NCBI GenBank assembly: GCA_964650775.1
Contig: CAZYUZ010000033.1
Span: 1 to 13,548, forward strand
DNA length: 13,548 nt
Reading direction: 5' to 3'
Source: an uncultured Lachnoclostridium sp.
Lineage (GTDB): Bacteria > Bacillota > Clostridia > Lachnospirales > Lachnospiraceae
In this document: positions 4,244-11,564 of the stretch, piece by piece
How the letters are laid out: each line of letters opens with the position of its first letter
How positions within the stretch are numbered: the first letter of the stretch is position 1
Made by a program: the position numbers and the translations under genes
Notes under the pieces: generated by a model
What the model saw: only the letters and a program-made list of their open reading frames with translations
The model's database searches: none
What the model was told of the DNA's origin: nothing

Positions 4244-5257
4244 TTATTCAATCGCTGCATATCCATCAACTGGTGCAATTCCTAATGCATCACAAATTGC
4301 TGCATTGTATTTTGGAGTTGTTGTTGTGTATTCGATTGGCATTGTAGAAATGTCAGCACCTTCTGTAAGAATTTTCACTGCCATCTGTCCTGTTGTATAA
4401 CCAAGGTCATAGTAGCTGATAGAAAGTGTTGCAACACCACATCCGCTGCAGATTCCTTCTTCACCTGCGATTACCGGTACGCCTGCCGGCTGACAGATAG
4501 AATCAATGATTCCTGTGTTTGCTGCTACTGTGTTATCAGTTGGAACATAGATTACATCACTGTTGTCTGCAGCTGTTGTAACAACAGAAGCTAAATCGTT
4601 TGAATCAGAGAAAGAATATAAAGTTGCTGTAAGTCCAGCTGCTTCTAATTCTGCTTTTACTACGTCAACCTGATACTGGCTGTTTGCTTCAGCTGAACAA
4701 TAAACAAGTCCTACTGTTTTTGCATCTGGGAACCATTCTGTGATCATAGCTGCCTGTTCATCAAGTGGAGCCAAGTCAGATGTTCCGGAAATATTTCCGC
4801 CTACTGTACCATTAAAGTCTTCGATTGCAAGTGCAACACCATATTCAGTAACGGATGTTCCAAGGATTGGAATATCTCCTGTTGCTGCAGCTGCTGCCTG
4901 AAGTGCTGGTGTAGCATTTGCCATAATCAGATCCACACCATCAGAAACAAACTGATTTGCGATTGTGGAACATGTGTTAGGGTCATTCTGACCATTCTGT
5001 AAGTCAAATTCTACCGCATCTTCACCAAGTGCATCAACGATTGCCTGCTGGAAGCCTTCTGTTGCTGCATCTAATGCAACGTGTTCTACCAACTGAACAA
5101 TACCGATTTTGAAAACTTCACCATCAGCTGCAACTTCCTCAGCTGGTTCTTCAGTCACTGCAGATTCTGCTGCTGGTTCTTCTGTTGCGGAACCGCCACA
5201 TGCTACTAAGCTAAGTGTCAGTGCCATTGTCATCATGAGTGCTAATAACTTTTTCAT
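4244..5257 (-). CDS. ABC transporter substrate-binding lipoprotein (PF04392 'ABC transporter substrate-binding protein' family; substrate unknown)
   Basis: The ORF has a lipoprotein signal MKKLLALMMTMALTLSLVAC-GG (lipobox LVAC). The mature domain has periplasmic-binding-protein character. The start was chosen at ATG 5257 (MKKLL) because RBS AAGGTGGG lies 5 nt upstream. The ORF-track start at 5281 (MNEEKVGI...) has no RBS. Confidence 0.85.
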   Translation of the reverse strand: MKKLLALMMTMALTLSLVACGGSATEEPAAESAVTEEPAEEVAADGEVFKIGIVQLVEHVALDAATEGFQQAIVDALGEDAVEFDLQNGQNDPNTCSTIANQFVSDGVDLIMANATPALQAAAAATGDIPILGTSVTEYGVALAIEDFNGTVGGNISGTSDLAPLDEQAAMITEWFPDAKTVGLVYCSAEANSQYQVDVVKAELEAAGLTATLYSFSDSNDLASVVTTAADNSDVIYVPTDNTVAANTGIIDSICQPAGVPVIAGEEGICSGCGVATLSISYYDLGYTTGQMAVKILTEGADISTMPIEYTTTTPKYNAAICDALGIAPVDGYAAIE

Positions 5258-5297
5258 AATACCCACCTTTTCTTCATTCATATATCCTAGTATTCTT

Positions 5298-5331
5298 TAG
5301 CACTTCAACGCTTTTACGCGTTGAAGTGCTA
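5298..5331 (-). other. Perfect 14-bp stem / 6-nt loop hairpin at the extreme 5' end of the ABC-operon transcript (5'-UTR stabiliser or palindromic operator)
   Basis: 5298-5311 (tagcacttcaacgc) is the exact reverse complement of 5318-5331; the loop is TTTTAC. No U-tract follows on either strand, so it is not an intrinsic terminator. It lies 4-10 nt downstream of the predicted TSS. Confidence 0.5.
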
Positions 5332-5341
5332 CATGTTTCAC

Positions 5342-5370
5342 ATAATACACCTATTCATGAATTAAGTCAA
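5342..5370 (-). promoter_or_regulatory. Sigma-A-type promoter for the ABC transporter operon: -35 TTGACT, 17-nt spacer, -10 TATTAT (minus-sense)
   Basis: The reverse complement of 5365-5370 is TTGACT and of 5342-5347 is TATTAT, with an exact 17-nt spacer. It sits in the 155-nt gap between the TPM gene stop and the binding-protein start. Confidence 0.5.
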
Positions 5371-5412: not shown

Positions 5413-6252
5413 TTAGAACTTTCTTCCACCACCACCATGGCTTCTTCCGCTGGAAGAACGATGTACGGAGCTTCTGCTGCCTCCACCGCTGCTTCTGCCA
5501 GAACTTTCGTTATTTCTTGGAATCCTACGGTGTGTCACAAACTTGTTGACCAGTTGATCTGATTTAACAGAAAGCTGAACATCGGAATCCGTATAAGCAT
5601 CATAGTGAAAATCCTCAAATTTCAGCTGATATTTCGCCTTGATGACACTGATGGTAATTCCTGCCGGAATCAGCGCAACTACCAGAGCAAATAAAAATTC
5701 GCCAAAAGTAATGCGCTTTGGTTCCTGGTAATAATCAATCTCACCAGCTTCTACATCATATTTATACTGATTTTCCGGAATTCCCCGATTCAGATAATAA
5801 TCCGTTTCATCAAAGAACGCGACAAACGTGCCGTAATAATCTCCATCAGCTACATATTCAAATGCTTCATCAAAAATATTGTCCACTCTTTCATCTGTCA
5901 GATACCGAATCGCAAGTCCGTAGGTAGAAAGATAAATTTCCCGATTGTCCATATCAATCAGATAAAGTATTCCGTCTTCTTCCGAATCATCAGGGAACTG
6001 TGCATCATAGAAGTCATCTGCGTACTCCTTAGCACTTTTTCCTTCTGCATCATCCGTCGTGACCACAAGGAAATTCATATTCCATTGTTCCGCGTGTTTT
6101 GTTGCCAGATTTTGCAGATATTCTTCCTCTTGCACAGTGAGCAGATCTGCATGGTCATACACATAATTTTCTTCTGCTGAAACATTCATCGCCGCAACCA
6201 GTCCGGCGCACAAACATACCGCTGTCATAAATACTCTAATTCTCTTCATCAT
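5413..6252 (-). CDS. TPM-domain (TLP18.3/Psb32/MOLO-1, UPF0603/YgcG-like) membrane protein with a C-terminal Gly/Ser/Arg-rich tail; YdjH-like
   Basis: 279-aa ORF with signal peptide MMKRIRVFMTAVCLCAGLVAAMNVSA, a TPM-like domain (…YVYDHADLLT…FLVVTTDD…GILYLIDMDNREIYLSTYG…), a TM helix FLFALVVALIPAGITISVI and a tail SSGRSSGGGSRSS…GGGGRKF. RBS GGAGGG is 8 nt before ATGATG. The start overlaps the upstream stop (ATGATGA). Confidence 0.8.
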   Translation of the reverse strand: MMKRIRVFMTAVCLCAGLVAAMNVSAEENYVYDHADLLTVQEEEYLQNLATKHAEQWNMNFLVVTTDDAEGKSAKEYADDFYDAQFPDDSEEDGILYLIDMDNREIYLSTYGLAIRYLTDERVDNIFDEAFEYVADGDYYGTFVAFFDETDYYLNRGIPENQYKYDVEAGEIDYYQEPKRITFGEFLFALVVALIPAGITISVIKAKYQLKFEDFHYDAYTDSDVQLSVKSDQLVNKFVTHRRIPRNNESSGRSSGGGSRSSVHRSSSGRSHGGGGRKF

Positions 6253-7313
6253 AACAGCAGCCCTCCGATCATAAGCACAACAAACATTGCTGCAAAGATG
6301 ATTGCACCAAGACCAAATAATTTTTTGTTATCGATTGGAAGCTTTCCGACAATTTCGCCGGTCTGTCCATTCATTGCAAAATAATAAACCTGATTACCAC
6401 TCTGTCTGTAGGTTAATACCCACACCGGCAGTAATGTGTACTTAAAATTCTCTTCTGCAATTGTATGATTCTGACTTTCCACCGAAAAGCTGTTGCGTCC
6501 GGTAATCGTATCGCGCATACGTTTTTCTGCAAATTTTTGAATTTCCTGTCGAATTTCTGCACTTAAGGACTCTTTATCGATATCCCTCTTTTCTGCCTGA
6601 AAACCGGACAAATATCCCATATGAAATTTTTCCATTGCACCGAATTCATATGGAAAAATTCCTTTTAACATGGCATTCTGCGCTTTCTGGAGTGCAGTTT
6701 TGGGCAAATGTTTAAATGTCACTTTTCCTGCACGCCTGATTGCAAAAATCTTTGTTTCTGTATATTCGATATCTCCGACACGCCAGATTCGGATGTCTCT
6801 TGCCGTACCATTCATATAGCTGTCGGTTTCACAGCCATATAGCCAGTATGGGAAATAAACACCACTCATTTTTTCAATCTGACTTTTCGAATAGAATCCT
6901 GAAGGAACGAATTTCTTTTTTTGAATCCATTCCTGAAATTTTTGGATTGCTTCGTCTTTTGTAATTTTAAACGGAACGATACCATCCGGCAGATATTCTC
7001 CCTCTAACCTGCCCGCCAATACAATCGGATTGTGGCAATAAAAGCAAAAGGTTGCCGCTGTCGTTTCATCCGTAATAATTTCTGCTCCACAACTTGGACA
7101 GTGATAAATCACTGCACTCTGCTGTGAGTCTGTACTCTCTGTAGTTTCTTCCTGTGCTTCTTCTGACTGAACAGTTTCTGCAGACTGAGAATCTGCTACA
7201 AGTTCCTCCTGTGTAAACTTTGAGAGACAATACTCGCAAGCATAAGTGCCGGATTCCGGGTCAAAGACCAGACCACCATCACAATTCGGACACTTATATG
7301 TAATTGCTGACAT
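6249..7313 (-). CDS. Double zinc-ribbon protein with C-terminal transmembrane anchor, function unknown; YdjG-like
   Basis: Two CxxC…CxxC ribbons (CPNC…CEYC and CPSC…CFYC) are separated by an acidic low-complexity linker. A central ~230-aa domain follows, then a terminal TM helix LFGLGAIIFAAMFVVLMIGGLLL. The start was chosen at ATG 7311-7313 (MSAITYKCPNC) because it overlaps the upstream TAA stop as TAATG. The ORF-track start at 7334 lies inside the upstream gene. Confidence 0.7.
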   Translation of the reverse strand: MSAITYKCPNCDGGLVFDPESGTYACEYCLSKFTQEELVADSQSAETVQSEEAQEETTESTDSQQSAVIYHCPSCGAEIITDETTAATFCFYCHNPIVLAGRLEGEYLPDGIVPFKITKDEAIQKFQEWIQKKKFVPSGFYSKSQIEKMSGVYFPYWLYGCETDSYMNGTARDIRIWRVGDIEYTETKIFAIRRAGKVTFKHLPKTALQKAQNAMLKGIFPYEFGAMEKFHMGYLSGFQAEKRDIDKESLSAEIRQEIQKFAEKRMRDTITGRNSFSVESQNHTIAEENFKYTLLPVWVLTYRQSGNQVYYFAMNGQTGEIVGKLPIDNKKLFGLGAIIFAAMFVVLMIGGLLL

Positions 7314-8497
7314 TATCCTCGTGCCTTTCCACACTCACTACAGAATTTTCCTGTATTCTTTGCTCCACATTCTGTACAGAACCACTCTTTTTTCTGTGCT
7401 GGTTTTCCACATTCCCCACAGAATTTTCCTGTATTTACAGAACCACATTCACAAATCCAGCTGCCTGCCGGAGCCGCTTTTGCAGCTTGCGCTGCCTGTG
7501 CCTGCTGCATCTGCATCTGTGCCATATTATTTGCTGAAGCTGTGTTCATAAAACCACCTGCGGTATTCATGCCAACGCCCATCCCCATAAATGCTGCTGC
7601 AGCGCCTGCACTGTTGGAACCTGCTGCTTCCATACCTCTTGCGATAGAGCCCTGTACATAACCTTCACGGATTGCAGCATCTGAGAGCATTGCCCCCTGA
7701 TTGCGCATATTGATGAGTTTCTGGGATTCTTCATCATAGGAAATACTTGCAATACCTACAGACTGAATCTCCATACCGCGCATCTGGTTCCAGTCAGCAT
7801 CCAGAATATCTGCCATATATTTTCCGAGTTCACGTCCTTTAGACTGAATATGGGAAATACGGATACCATCCACAGACATCTGACCGATTGCAGACTGTAA
7901 TGCTTCTAAAAATTCTGATAAATACTGTTCATTCATGTCATTCATTCTGACATGAGATTTGTTGCGTGGTACAGCTTCTGCATAGAAACGCAGAGGGTCT
8001 GTAATTTTCACAGAATAGTTTCCGTGTGCGCGAAGGAATAATTCTGCATTATAGAAATTATCAAAGTAATTGATTGGATTTCTTGTACCAAATTTTAATC
8101 CTTTGATTTCCTGAAGGTTCACGAAGAATACTTTCTGTTTTTTTGGAGTTTCTCCGCCAAATTTAATACGTTCAAAAGAATCCTGCAACGCTTCTTTATA
8201 GCTTCCATTGAATAAAGATGGCATCGAAGAATCATCTACTTTGTAATAGCCTTCTTCCGCAGTATAATCTACAACTTTGCCGCCATCTACCAGCATCATA
8301 AACTGATTTGCATATACATGAATCACAGAACCATTGGATACAGTTCCGTCAGAACCCTTTACATTTTCACCTTTTCGGATTTTTACACCTTCACAAAAGA
8401 CCGTATCGTCTCCCATATCCGCTGCTTCAATGACTTCCAGCCACTGATCTGCCAAAGTTCCTTTCACGGAACCTATTGCTGCTTTAATAATTCCCAT
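7313..8497 (-). CDS. SPFH/Band-7 (stomatin-prohibitin-flotillin-like) protein with Ala/Gln/Met-rich linker and two tandem C-terminal zinc ribbons (COG4260-like); YdjI-like
   Basis: 394-aa protein from ATG 8497 (MGIIKAAIGS...), with RBS AAGGAGG 8 nt upstream. The TTG at 8533 that heads the ORF-track ORF has no RBS. SPFH-like core, then linker …AAAAFMGMGVGMNTAGGFMNTASANNMAQMQMQQAQAAQAAKAA…, then CECGSVNTGKFCGECGK and CTECGAKNTGKFCSECGK. Confidence 0.8.
   Translation of the reverse strand: MGIIKAAIGSVKGTLADQWLEVIEAADMGDDTVFCEGVKIRKGENVKGSDGTVSNGSVIHVYANQFMMLVDGGKVVDYTAEEGYYKVDDSSMPSLFNGSYKEALQDSFERIKFGGETPKKQKVFFVNLQEIKGLKFGTRNPINYFDNFYNAELFLRAHGNYSVKITDPLRFYAEAVPRNKSHVRMNDMNEQYLSEFLEALQSAIGQMSVDGIRISHIQSKGRELGKYMADILDADWNQMRGMEIQSVGIASISYDEESQKLINMRNQGAMLSDAAIREGYVQGSIARGMEAAGSNSAGAAAAFMGMGVGMNTAGGFMNTASANNMAQMQMQQAQAAQAAKAAPAGSWICECGSVNTGKFCGECGKPAQKKEWFCTECGAKNTGKFCSECGKARG
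7339..7435 (-). repeat. Intragenic 18-bp perfect direct repeat (acagaattttcctgtatt at 7339-7356 and 7418-7435) encoding the duplicated NTGKFC zinc-ribbon motif
   Basis: Read directly from the sequence. The two copies are 79 bp apart, and both translate (reverse complement) to N-T-G-K-F-C inside the C-terminal tandem zinc ribbons of the SPFH protein. Confidence 0.6.
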
Positions 8498-8575
8498 AAC
8501 TGATTCCTCCTTCTTTATATTGAATAATTTCAAGCAAATTTTTCAATGCTTGAAAATCCTGCGTATTTTCTACGC
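8498..8575 (-). promoter_or_regulatory. Palindrome-rich 78-nt intergenic region between gpsA and the SPFH gene (post-gpsA hairpin plus overlapping inverted repeats); candidate regulatory region
   Basis: The mRNA-sense hairpin GCGUA-GAAAA-UACGC lies directly after the gpsA stop. Overlapping palindromes follow: TTTTCAA-GCA-TTGAAAA (8541-8557) and CAAGCA-N10-TGCTTG (8531-8552). No confident -35/-10 pair could be placed. Confidence 0.3.
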
Positions 8576-9589
8576 TCATTTTTCCCAAGGTAATAATGGG
8601 TTTTCAGTCTTTCCATCGCGGACCATCAGATCTCTGAGTGCCTCTGTTGCAGATTTCCCGTTAAATAAAACGGCATTTACCTGCTCAATGATCGGCATAC
8701 GCACATAAAATTTATCTGCAAGCTTTAATGCTGCCTTTGCAGAATATACACCTTCCACAACCATTTTTACTTCGTCCATTGCATCCTGCATAGAATAACC
8801 TTGACCAATCAAGTATCCGGCTTTTCGGTTTCTGGAATGTTTACTTGCACAGGTTACGATCAAGTCTCCCATTCCTGCAAGTCCGCTGAATGTTTCCTGA
8901 TAACCGCCCATGGCAACACCAAGTCGGCTCATTTCTACAATTCCTCTTGTAATCAGTGCAGCCTTTGTGTTATCTCCGCATCCAAGACCATCTGAAATCC
9001 CCGCAGCCAGTGCAATCACATTCTTTAACGCACCGCCAATTTCAATCCCACGCATATCCGGACTTGTATATACACGAAATGCTTCGTTCATAAAAATGCT
9101 CTGGATCTTTTCTGCTGTTTTGCGTGTCTTTGCTCCTGCAACCACGGTTGTTGGAATGTCACGGCTTACCTCTTCCGCATGACTCGGACCGGAAAGTACT
9201 GCCACATCTGCATTTGGAATTTCATCTTCAATGACTTCTGTCATGGTATAGAGTGTACTTTCTTCAATTCCTTTGCTGACATTCACAATGATCTGTCCAT
9301 CGTGAACAAATGGTGCCATTTTTGCCGATGTGCTTCGGATATAAAGGGATGGAACACCAAGAACAACCAATTCTTTACCCTTTACCGCTGTTTCCATATC
9401 AGCCGTAATTTCAATATTTTCCGGGATTTTTACCCCCGGAAGTTTTTCTTTATTTTCACGAAGGGCGCGAAGTTCCTCCGCCTTTGCCTCTCTTGAGGAC
9501 CATAACGTCACCTGATGACCGTTTTTTTCTAATACGAGGGCGAGAGCTGTTCCCCAGCTTCCTGCTCCTACAACGCCTACATTTGCCAC
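8576..9589 (-). CDS. gpsA: NAD(P)H-dependent glycerol-3-phosphate dehydrogenase
   Basis: 337-aa ORF MANVGVVGAGSWGTALALVL… with the GxGxxG Rossmann N-terminus typical of GpsA. It uses a GTG start (9587-9589) with RBS GGAGG 7 nt upstream; there is no in-frame ATG alternative nearby. Confidence 0.9.
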   Translation of the reverse strand: MANVGVVGAGSWGTALALVLEKNGHQVTLWSSREAKAEELRALRENKEKLPGVKIPENIEITADMETAVKGKELVVLGVPSLYIRSTSAKMAPFVHDGQIIVNVSKGIEESTLYTMTEVIEDEIPNADVAVLSGPSHAEEVSRDIPTTVVAGAKTRKTAEKIQSIFMNEAFRVYTSPDMRGIEIGGALKNVIALAAGISDGLGCGDNTKAALITRGIVEMSRLGVAMGGYQETFSGLAGMGDLIVTCASKHSRNRKAGYLIGQGYSMQDAMDEVKMVVEGVYSAKAALKLADKFYVRMPIIEQVNAVLFNGKSATEALRDLMVRDGKTENPLLPWEK

Positions 9590-9600
9590 TGATATGCCTC

Positions 9601-10239
9601 CTACTTCTTTTCAAAAATTCGGTTCTCTGTACCGTTTAAGAGACGCACAATATTTGCACGGTGTCTGTAAATTGCCATACCTGCAAGAAAAGCTGCAATG
9701 ACATACATTTCAATCAATGGCGCCTGTGCCATGTGATAAAGCCCAAGCTGTCCAAAAACAATGATAAATATTGCAAATTCTGTAACAATGACCATAGATC
9801 CAAGAGATACATAACGAGTCACGATTACGATCGCTAAAAATGTCAGCAATGCAATGATTCCGATACGAACATCAAATGCCGCAAGAAGACCTGCAGTACA
9901 TGCAATTCCTTTTCCACCGCGGAAATTTAACTGAACCGGGAAATTATGCCCTAAAATACATCCGGTTGCCGCATAAATCCCAAGCAGTGGTAAAATGTCC
10001 GGTGCAGAATTTTTAAAAATCAGTCTTACCAGATGAATAGAAATAAAGCATTTTAAAAAGTCACCTGCAAAAACAATCGCACCTGCTTTCTTTCCAAGCA
10101 CACGAAGTGCATTGGTTGTTCCCGCATTGCCGCTTCCATGCTCACGAATATCGATTCCGTTCATCTTTCCGTAGATATACGCAGACTGAATAATGCCGAA
10201 TAAATAACCAATTACTAAGCTTGCAATTCTTGGAAACAT
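9601..10239 (-). CDS. plsY: Glycerol-3-phosphate acyltransferase PlsY (acyl-phosphate:G3P acyltransferase)
   Basis: 212-aa polytopic membrane ORF with the PlsY motifs …GSGNAGTTNALR… and …GHNFPV…FRGGKG…. Its ATG overlaps the der stop (TAATG at 10237-10241). Confidence 0.9.
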   Translation of the reverse strand: MFPRIASLVIGYLFGIIQSAYIYGKMNGIDIREHGSGNAGTTNALRVLGKKAGAIVFAGDFLKCFISIHLVRLIFKNSAPDILPLLGIYAATGCILGHNFPVQLNFRGGKGIACTAGLLAAFDVRIGIIALLTFLAIVIVTRYVSLGSMVIVTEFAIFIIVFGQLGLYHMAQAPLIEMYVIAAFLAGMAIYRHRANIVRLLNGTENRIFEKK

Positions 10240-11564
10240 TATTCATTCTCCTTTCTCTCACGAATGATGAATCTTAAGGAAGTTCCTTTAAATCCAAAGG
10301 TGTCACGAATCTTATTTTCCAGATATCTTGTATAAGAGAAATGCATCAGCTGCTTGTCATTTACGAAAATTACGAATGTTGGCGGTTTTACAGAAACCTG
10401 TGTTGTGTAGTAAATTTTCAGACGTTTTCCTTTGTCTGAAGGTGGCTGCTGTAATGCTACCGCTTCTGTAATAATCTCATTTAAGACACCTGTTGCAATA
10501 CGAAGTGTCTGGTTTTCAATGACCATATCGATGGTTTCAAATAATTTTGGTAATCTCTGTCCTGTCACTGCAGAAACAAATACCATTTCTGCATATGGCA
10601 TATAAGCAAGTGTTTCACGAATCTTGTTCTGGAATTCGTAAATGGTCTTATCATTTTTTTCAATGGCATCCCATTTATTCACAACAATGACAATACCTTT
10701 TCCACGATCATGTGCAATTCCTGCAATCTTCGCATCCTGTTCTGTGATACCTTCTGTCGCATCGATGACCATAAGAACCACATCTGCTCTTTCTACCGCG
10801 GAAACAGTACGGATAATACTATATCGTTCCAGTTCTTCTTTTACTTTGCTCTTTCTTCGAAGACCAGCAGTATCAATAAATACATATTCTTTTCCATTAT
10901 AAATAATGTCCGTGTCAATGGCATCACGTGTAGTGCCTGCAATATCAGATACGATAACGCGGTTTTCCCCTGTCAGCTTATTAATAATAGAAGATTTTCC
11001 CACGTTCGGTTTTCCAACGATCGCAATCTTTGGTCTTTCATCTTCTTCCTCGTCTTCAGCACTTTCTGGAAAATGTTTGATTACTTCATCCAGCATATCA
11101 CCGATTCCCTGACGGTTTGCAGCAGAAATCGGCATTGGATCGCCAATTCCCAAATTATAAAATTCATAGACATCTGCAATGAATTTCTGATAGCTGTCCA
11201 CCTTATTGACACAGAGGACAACTGGTTTTTTAGAACGACGGAGCATGTCCGCTACCTTTCCATCAGAATCTACCAGCCCTTGTTTTACGTCAGTCATAAA
11301 GATAATCACGTCTGCGGTATCAATGGCAATCTGTGCCTGTTCTCTCATCTGGGATAAAATGATATCTCCGGAATCCGGTTCGATACCACCGGTATCAATC
11401 AATGTAAAGTTGTGGTTTAACCATGTCACATCCGCATAAATACGGTCACGTGTAACACCTGGTGTGTCTTTAACAATGGAGATATTCTCTCCTGCTAATG
11501 CATTAAACAGGGTAGATTTCCCTACATTTGGTCTTCCTACCACCGCAACAATTGGTTTACTCAT
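10239..11564 (-). CDS. der: Ribosome-biogenesis GTPase Der (EngA), tandem GTPase domains plus KH-like C-terminus
   Basis: 441-aa ORF with two G1 motifs GRPNVGKS and GKPNVGKS, and DTGG / DTAG G3 motifs. RBS GAGGT is 6-7 nt before the ATG. Confidence 0.9.

Follow-up and report, generated by a model that had tools for sequence, protein, structure and literature searches.

A SamGHI-type SPFH, zinc-ribbon and TPM gene trio without adjoining pspA in an uncultured Lachnoclostridium species

The contig CAZYUZ010000033.1 of an uncultured Lachnoclostridium sp. (Lachnospiraceae; assembly GCA_964650775.1), which was analysed over its entire length of 13,548 bp and is termed "the window" in the following, carries on its minus strand three consecutive genes coding for a protein with a Band_7_1-type SPFH domain, a protein with two N-terminal zinc ribbons and a C-terminal transmembrane (TM) helix (ZnR protein), and a protein with a TPM domain. 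The trio is homologous to YdjI, YdjG and YdjH (SamI, SamG and SamH) of the pspA-ydjGHI operon of Bacillus subtilis, and it probably forms a complex of the SamGHI type that senses envelope stress, acts as a scaffold, and functions in the absence of a PspA protein encoded in cis. Homology, topology, the conserved pairing of the ZnR and TPM genes, natural gene fusions and the phyletic pattern come from the present analysis; that G and H anchor I, that H contacts both G and I, and that I restrains G/H is carried over by analogy from experiments in B. subtilis. The three-gene arrangement is not a chance product; it is found again in 78 of the 80 most closely related species genomes. The trio is a common variant of a known module, for which PspA-independent functions have already been reported.

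Homology to YdjGHI and protein architectures

The SPFH gene (7313–8497, minus strand; ATG at 8497, stop codon at 7313–7315) codes for 394 amino acids (aa), the ZnR gene (6249–7313; ATG at 7313–7311, stop codon at 6251–6249) for 354 aa, and the TPM gene (5413–6252; ATG at 6252–6250, stop codon at 5415–5413) for 279 aa. A Shine-Dalgarno sequence, GAAGGAGG (8506–8513), is located 8–16 nt upstream of the SPFH start codon. An earlier reading of the window from its letters alone (the sequence-only reading) had described three consecutive minus-strand genes for an SPFH, a double-zinc-ribbon-TM and a TPM protein, and the open reading frames (ORFs) are confirmed here. The two junctions it had pointed out can likewise be read in the sequence, namely TAATG (7315–7311), in which the SPFH stop and the ZnR start overlap by 1 nt, and ATGA (6252–6249), in which the ZnR stop and the TPM start overlap by 4 nt.

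For comparison, a reference operon was located by an exact-match scan of metagenome contigs with the first 30 nt of ydjG (primers in PMC8581546), which returned two loci. The B. subtilis-type operon, L002, comprises pspA, ydjG (341 aa), ydjH and ydjI (323 aa); its termini agree with the published primers, and Pfam assigns PspA_IM30, TPM, and Band_7_1 plus zinc ribbon to the respective proteins. BLASTP aligned all three window proteins end to end with their counterparts. The ZnR protein shares 31% identity with YdjG over 353 aligned columns (E 3e-64) and the TPM protein 26% with YdjH (E 1e-18), while the SPFH protein is 23% identical to YdjI (E 2e-12) in an alignment that starts at residue 17 and extends past the low-complexity region into the zinc ribbon. 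Because these alignments are end to end, and that of the SPFH protein with YdjI reaches the zinc ribbon, homology of the trio to YdjG, YdjH and YdjI is considered established at the level of sequence comparison.

Homology and gene content of the window thus support the proposal, made from the letters alone, of a ydjGHI-like trio with permuted gene order and without an adjacent pspA. The gene order is I-G-H in the window as opposed to G-H-I in B. subtilis, and pspA, with which the B. subtilis operon begins, is missing. A gene of the PspA_IM30 family (PF04012), which flanking the module would have contradicted that proposal, was looked for across the 13,548 bp of the contig and not found; the PspA proteins of L002 and of a second pspA-bearing locus, L080, served as positive controls and scored E 1e-41. 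As in the window, the G and H genes of B. subtilis are adjacent with overlapping stop and start codons.

TM segments were predicted from 19-residue Kyte-Doolittle (KD) hydropathy means, and topology also from charge bias. In the ZnR protein, zinc ribbons 1 and 2 with an acidic linker between them occupy residues 6–94 (7032–7298) and comprise four CxxC motifs at residues 8, 26, 72 and 90 (CPNC8, CEYC26, CPSC72 and CFYC90), the cysteines of which are invariant in both alignments made (A1 and A2). They are followed by a central alpha/beta domain resembling PepSY/cystatin folds (residues ~100–325; 6339–7016), which is predicted to be cytoplasmic and is covered by no Pfam model, and by a C-terminal TM helix (residues 335–353/354; 6255–6311; KD 2.67) that starts directly after DNKK and presumably acts as a tail anchor. 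Motifs and hydropathy bear out the two N-terminal zinc ribbons and the C-terminal TM segment noted earlier. Pfam gave zinc-ribbon matches only, all of them sub-threshold, and a sequence search of the PDB returned zinc-ribbon noise only.

The TPM protein consists of a signal peptide (residues 7–25), an acidic TPM domain (residues 31–151; 5800–6162) predicted to be outside the membrane, a TM helix (residues 186–204; 5641–5697; KD 2.61), and a basic Gly/Ser/Arg-rich tail (residues 205–279; 5416–5640) that is predicted from charge bias to be cytoplasmic and ends in GGGGRKF. Hydropathy and composition agree with the signal peptide, TM segment and Gly/Ser/Arg tail given in the sequence-only reading; the ectodomain contains 40 D/E versus 10 K/R, and the tail 13 K/R versus 7 D/E. 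Among PDB entries, the TPM domain matches 7tbr (E 2e-5) and 5anp, BA41 (E 5e-4). No NCBIfam model was matched above its cut-off by the window proteins, the TPM protein showing a weak match to Psb32 (19 bits versus a cut-off of 160). The C-termini of TPM partners from loci L001–L085 conform to [RK]-x-F in 70 of 85 cases and end in F in 77 of 85, with Gly-rich sequence before the motif; YdjH of B. subtilis type, which terminates in SRGSF, belongs to the proteins ending in F. The Gly-rich-[RK]-x-F-COOH terminus is a candidate docking peptide.

The SPFH protein is laid out as a soluble Band_7_1 domain (residues 53–265; 7703–8341), an Ala/Gly/Met/Gln-rich low-complexity stretch, and two C-terminal zinc ribbons (residues ~346–392; 7322–7462) with the patterns CxC-x9-CxxC and CxxC-x8-CxxC and a weak DZR match in Pfam. 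The ribbons had gone unnoticed in the sequence-only reading. Among SPFH ORFs adjoining ZnR-TPM pairs, 80 of 83 contain four to six such C-terminal Cys pairs. No TM segment was predicted for the window protein, the highest 19-residue KD mean being 1.06, and sequence searches of the PDB gave no meaningful match for it. Of the Pfam assignments anticipated for the trio, Band_7_1 (PF13421, E 9e-20) and TPM_phosphatase (PF04536, E 1.3e-23) were obtained; for the ZnR protein the outcome was the sub-threshold matches described above. The label "flotillin-like" that had been given to the SPFH protein does not hold, as it lacks a membrane anchor and a flotillin domain and has C-terminal zinc ribbons like YdjI. 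Assignment to flotillins of the FloA/FloT type was rejected on the same grounds of a missing hydrophobic segment and a missing flotillin-domain Pfam match.

The architecture of the window trio agrees with the published description of YdjG as two zinc ribbons, a YpeB-related domain and a TM helix, of YdjI as a band-7 domain with a C-terminal zinc ribbon, and of YdjH as a TPM domain with a low-complexity segment (PMC11237479). G proteins of both systems share the two zinc ribbons, the central alpha/beta domain and the C-terminal TM helix; H proteins share the signal peptide, TPM domain, TM helix and a Gly/Ser-rich tail ending in F; and I proteins share the soluble Band_7_1 SPFH domain, the low-complexity stretch and a C-terminal zinc-ribbon region. 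The SPFH proteins differ in that the window protein begins with MGIIKAA and has two zinc ribbons, whereas YdjI begins with MSFFRNQL and has one.

Gene order and the ZnR-TPM core in relatives

The ZnR protein family is large, with 2,820 word-index matches and 6,675 representatives of 50%-identity clusters at E<=1e-3. A scan of one genome per species identified at least 580 genomes with a ZnR relative, from which the best 80 loci, nearly all of them from Lachnospiraceae, were fetched with 10-kb flanks, and all their ORFs were scored with the window and B. subtilis proteins. The closest of these loci, from a faecal Lachnospiraceae metagenome-assembled genome, shows 86% identity. A single strand carries all three genes in the order SPFH, ZnR, TPM in 78 loci out of the 80, in line with the co-occurrence expected of them in related genomes; the remaining two loci (L033 and L048) contain ZnR and TPM only. 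PspA was searched for with phmmer and iterated jackhmmer and detected in one of the 80 loci, L080; in close relatives no pspA was found within 10 kb. For more distant members, the 50%-identity representatives were clustered and Pfam-annotated contigs, several of them short, were examined for several clades. The SPFH-ZnR-TPM order was again found in three of these clades (L089, L093 and L094/L095), and ZnR-TPM without an SPFH gene in L086, L096/L097 and L098, the last representing the clade nearest to B. subtilis YdjG. No PspA_IM30 gene was found in the flanks of these distant loci (L086, L089 and L093–L098), several of which lie on short contigs. The SPFH-first order without pspA is the norm in Lachnospiraceae and in other clades sampled rather than a peculiarity of the window locus, and within this sample, which is small and not a census, the Bacillus operon with pspA in front and the order G-H-I is exceptional.

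The ZnR-TPM pair is the conserved core of the module, because the overlap of ZnR stop and TPM start (1–7 nt) is kept in 73 of 83 loci and because natural ZnR-TPM fusions exist. An overlap likewise joins ydjG and ydjH in L002. The SPFH and ZnR genes overlap in only 14 of 81 loci, the median gap being 26 nt (a few large gap values are probably artefacts). Of the two overlapping junctions emphasised in the sequence-only reading, the one between ZnR and TPM genes is widely conserved, and the one between SPFH and ZnR genes is not.

Two of the cluster representatives, P0261 (597 aa; L090, 880–2673) and P0188 (649 aa; L092, 1381–3330), are independent natural fusions: the two zinc ribbons and the central domain are followed by a TM helix, which leads to the TPM domain, another TM helix and a Gly/Ser tail with GRGF or GRHF at its end. 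In both, the signal peptide of the TPM protein is missing and the TM helix of the ZnR protein stands in its place, leading straight into the TPM domain. Because of this substitution, we read P0261 and P0188 as true fusions and not as frameshift artefacts. They fix the topology and corroborate the one predicted from hydropathy and charge bias: the zinc ribbons, the central domain and the tail face the cytoplasm, and the TPM domain is external. P0261 is located between tig and clpP, P0188 is located beside unrelated genes, and neither an SPFH nor a pspA gene was found beside them in the sequence available.

The SPFH protein of the window is 54–58% identical to the SPFH proteins of the distant loci L089 and L094, the ZnR partners of which share only 33–39% identity with that of the window, and 22–23% identical to YdjI. 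As far as pairwise identities go, this points to two sequence subfamilies, a window type and a YdjI type. The only pspA-bearing locus of the 80, L080 (6912–11943), contains a pspA-ydjI pair, then prfB, then ZnR and TPM genes. Its PspA and YdjI-type SPFH proteins are 63% and 60% identical, respectively, to the B. subtilis-type proteins, the SPFH gene immediately following pspA; the ZnR-TPM pair lies about 2.4 kb from the pspA-ydjI pair, prfB directly abuts the ZnR gene, and a window-type SPFH gene is absent. As one natural example, L080 suggests that PspA travels with the YdjI-type SPFH protein, and that the window-type SPFH protein belongs to PspA-free cassettes.

Some variation in the partners was observed. 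TPM proteins of distant loci may be longer, as in L094 (6165–7838; 557 aa) and L086 (5108–6337; 409 aa), the latter apparently with two TPM-like halves before the TM helix. In seven loci (e.g. L044, 1042–1815), a gene coding for a protein of about 257 aa with an N-terminal TM helix and a C-terminal zinc ribbon (CPNCG...CEYCG) directly precedes the SPFH gene; this protein may be an extra partner.

Genomic context and expression

The genes of the window run on the minus strand in the order DUF512-type radical-SAM gene, der, plsY, gpsA, SPFH, ZnR and TPM, followed by the genes of an ATP-binding cassette (ABC) transporter (binding protein, permease, ATPase), a homocysteine S-methyltransferase gene and ilvN; the contig ends carry partial ilvC and partial prs. 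The genes der, plsY and gpsA (8576–11564) are thus situated directly upstream of the trio on the same strand. This arrangement is limited to seven loci, all close relatives, two of which stem from a separate contig look-up; in three further loci, a gpsA-plsY-der block lies downstream, on the other strand. Upstream, prfB is encountered most often (37 loci), in many cases with secA in front of it; downstream, an ACT-domain gene, hom and apgM are the most frequent neighbours. The internal order of the cassette is thus retained amid changing flanks. Because the flanks vary across loci, no functional weight can be given to the gpsA/plsY neighbourhood: the position directly behind gpsA was correctly noted in the sequence-only reading, but it is kept only in the closest relatives and does not carry the functional meaning attached to it. 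A functional link of the trio to gpsA and plsY was rejected accordingly, the synteny not being conserved among relatives.

In five close relatives, the gpsA stop codon is separated from the SPFH start codon by 15–18 nt, which contain only the Shine-Dalgarno sequence. The corresponding spacer of the window comprises 78 nt owing to a 62-nt insertion (8514–8575) relative to these five; the insertion consists of a small hairpin (GCGTAGAAAATACGC, 8575–8561) and AT-rich sequence. Consensus scans revealed no sigma-70-like site and no sigma-W-like motif (GAAAC-N15-18-CGTA) between gpsA and the SPFH gene, with the proviso that the host's repertoire of sigma factors of the extracytoplasmic function type may differ, and no terminator-like site between gpsA and the trio or after the trio. 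An Rfam search of the window matched no RNA family. Co-transcription of the trio with der-plsY-gpsA is the simplest reading of this layout and is probable. The B. subtilis operon, by comparison, is sigma-W regulated (PMC8581546), whereas the window trio has no sigma-W-like motif upstream and stands behind der-plsY-gpsA, with a near-zero spacer in close relatives.

Downstream of the trio, the leader region (5299–5370) of the gene for the ABC transporter binding protein (4244–5281) contains a near-consensus promoter, TTGACT-17-TATTAT (5370–5342, minus strand), followed by a perfect 13-bp stem-loop (5330–5318/5311–5299, loop GTAAAA). The stem (5330–5299) is not followed by a T-run and has no Rfam match, and hence it is no obvious terminator or known riboswitch. 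The sole sigma-W-like motif of the window (5339–5315) overlaps this stem and is compatible with chance, since 34 of 200 shuffles match as well. In a relative with 88% identity (L005, 7697–16848), the three-gene ABC transporter is absent, the S-methyltransferase gene directly follows the TPM gene, and three consecutive genes for CotH-domain proteins are found further downstream.

Transporter genes also occur upstream of the cassette in some relatives. In L096/L097 (1–9966), the ZnR start overlaps the stop codon of an ABC-2 permease gene, which is preceded by genes for an ABC ATPase, an 812-aa protein without recorded Pfam match, and two two-component systems, a layout resembling an envelope-stress transporter locus. 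Genes for an ABC ATPase and an ABC-2 permease are located one to three genes upstream of the cassette in about 18 Lachnospiraceae loci.

Proposed mechanism and competing explanations

The claim that the function of such a module is unknown in any organism is outdated in view of PMC8581546 and bioRxiv 10.64898/2026.02.06.704340. YdjI of B. subtilis is soluble, and its membrane localisation and foci, as observed by microscopy, require YdjG and YdjH; two-hybrid contacts were reported for YdjG-YdjH, YdjH-YdjI and YdjH-PspA (PMC8581546). Loss of SamI leads to a chronic stress- or starvation-like state, which is suppressed by deletion of samH and is absent in the pspA deletion mutant, i.e., it is SamH-dependent and PspA-independent, and SamGH has been proposed to be a sensor restrained by SamI (bioRxiv 10.64898/2026.02.06.704340).

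By analogy, the TPM protein and the tail-anchored ZnR protein of the window would form a membrane-integral core that docks the soluble SPFH protein at the inner face of the membrane, where the latter may oligomerise and restrain or organise signalling by the core upon envelope perturbation. The TPM ectodomain is a candidate sensor, because it would be the only sizeable part on the wall side, and the C-terminal RxF tail, the zinc ribbons and the PepSY-like domain are possible docking surfaces for the SPFH protein. Formation of the core and placement of the TPM domain on the wall side are supported by the sequence evidence of homology, coupling, fusions and predicted topology. The cassette most likely works independently of PspA, because pspA is lacking in cis, expression with the housekeeping genes der-plsY-gpsA is probable, and the SPFH protein appears to belong to a subfamily differing from YdjI; the phyletic pattern and the apparent subfamily split suggest such independence.

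Several points weigh against this reading. A pspA gene may be present elsewhere in the genome, the search having covered the contig; despite the consensus scans, gpsA itself or the 78-nt spacer may contain a promoter that responds to stress; the evidence on interaction, localisation and expression comes from outside Clostridia and applies here by analogy; and with 23% identity between the SPFH protein and YdjI, the transfer of YdjI properties across subfamilies is an extrapolation.

The main alternative is that the same complex is formed, but that its real job is to recruit a PspA/IM30 protein encoded elsewhere, so that the trio would be an ordinary accessory module of the phage-shock (Psp) response, the effector gene of which has moved. 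YdjI, YdjG and YdjH are indeed all needed for PspA foci in B. subtilis (PMC8581546), PspA-free partner operons may use a PspA encoded elsewhere (Ravi et al., PMC11237479), and in L080 the ZnR-TPM pair is separated from the pspA-ydjI pair by about 2.4 kb. However, the same locus suggests that PspA is matched to the other SPFH subfamily, as its PspA has its own YdjI-type partner and the window type is absent. With no flanking pspA in 79 of the 80 related loci or in any of the distant loci sampled, and with the phenotypes of SamGHI in B. subtilis being independent of PspA (bioRxiv 10.64898/2026.02.06.704340), we regard recruitment of a distal PspA as unlikely, at something like one chance among a few.

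The remaining explanations are far less probable. That the trio serves phospholipid or envelope biosynthesis, its TPM domain being an extracytoplasmic phosphatase, would be in keeping with its location directly behind der-plsY-gpsA, with which it is probably co-transcribed, and with the TPM family owing its name to a plant protein of weak phosphatase activity (cited in PMC11237479). This is highly improbable, given that the gpsA position is confined to seven loci, with the block downstream on the opposite strand in three more, that prfB is upstream in 37 loci and other loci differ again, and that distant members and fusions occur beside unrelated genes (tig/clpP, an ABC transporter, nrdDG). 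An anti-phage defence or abortive-infection membrane system is an even more remote prospect. Some SPFH and zinc-ribbon proteins do occur in conflict systems, and the zinc-ribbon region weakly matches the PADLOC candidate PDC-S64 (E 2.9e-7). This match spans residues 5–96 only and corresponds to a non-equivalent segment of the profile, PADLOC-DB 2.0 returned nothing for the SPFH and TPM proteins, the cassette resides in conserved housekeeping synteny and not in variable islands, and no relatives were found in 2.9 million viral contigs; the defence reading was rejected in view of the partial zinc-ribbon match and the lack of viral-contig relatives. We attach the least credence to a sporulation or germination factor, an idea that derives from the YpeB-like domain, a fold-level resemblance only, and from a position said to carry spoIVA in sporulating Clostridia: YpeB acts outside the membrane, but the domain resembling it is predicted to be on the cytoplasmic side here, sigma-W regulates the operon of B. 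subtilis (PMC8581546), and the genomic position is not conserved.

A SamGHI-type complex working without PspA in cis has parallels in other systems. Like PspBC-PspA of Escherichia coli, it would combine a membrane sensor made of two proteins with a peripheral regulatory subunit that keeps this sensor in check, a principle proposed in bioRxiv 10.64898/2026.02.06.704340, but PspB and PspC share no sequence relationship with the ZnR and TPM proteins (same source), and the window contains neither PspA nor PspF. As in SPFH-partner operons (HflK/C-FtsH, QmcA-YbbJ and other SPFH-NfeD pairs, FloA/FloT), the SPFH gene is found beside that of a membrane partner, and oligomerisation at the membrane would be expected from the literature as cited in bioRxiv 10.64898/2026.02.06.704340. 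The window SPFH protein differs from them in having no membrane anchor of its own and in having TPM and zinc-ribbon proteins instead of NfeD or FtsH as partners; it showed no flotillin-domain or NfeD match in Pfam, and no long coiled coil was recognised in its sequence. With the TPM proteins TLP18.3/Psb32, BA41/BA42 and 7tbr, the window TPM protein shares a TPM fold predicted to be outside the cytoplasm, with sequence similarity to 7tbr and BA41, but it comes with a zinc-ribbon protein and an SPFH protein as partners.

The literature found describes the trio only as a PspA-linked operon of Firmicutes, and in the literature searched there was no description of a PspA-free SPFH-first cassette, of ZnR-TPM fusions, or of a split into SPFH subfamilies. 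On a broader scale, we tentatively suggest, with somewhat less than even confidence, that the ZnR-TPM pair, usually behind its own SPFH subfamily, may be an autonomous, PspA-independent transmembrane device for sensing and scaffolding, widespread among Firmicutes including Clostridia. PspA-YdjGHI of B. subtilis would then represent an addition specific to its lineage, a mobile pspA-ydjI pair having been inserted into an older core, and the [RK]-x-F tail or the zinc ribbons might constitute the docking code for the SPFH subfamily and hence for recruitment of PspA.

Experimental knowledge of the module stems from one B. subtilis operon and has been read in terms of a PspA accessory. In the gut Lachnospiraceae sampled, the module commonly occurs without an adjoining pspA, contains what appears to be another SPFH subfamily, and is embedded in housekeeping operons. 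The trio is not a new kind of system, but it provides comparative context, helps to see the B. subtilis system in a new light, and offers a basis for designing experiments. Its zinc ribbons, the TPM domain, predicted to be external, and the RxF tail, predicted to be cytoplasmic, may serve as handles for studying sensing and signalling without the confounding influence of PspA.

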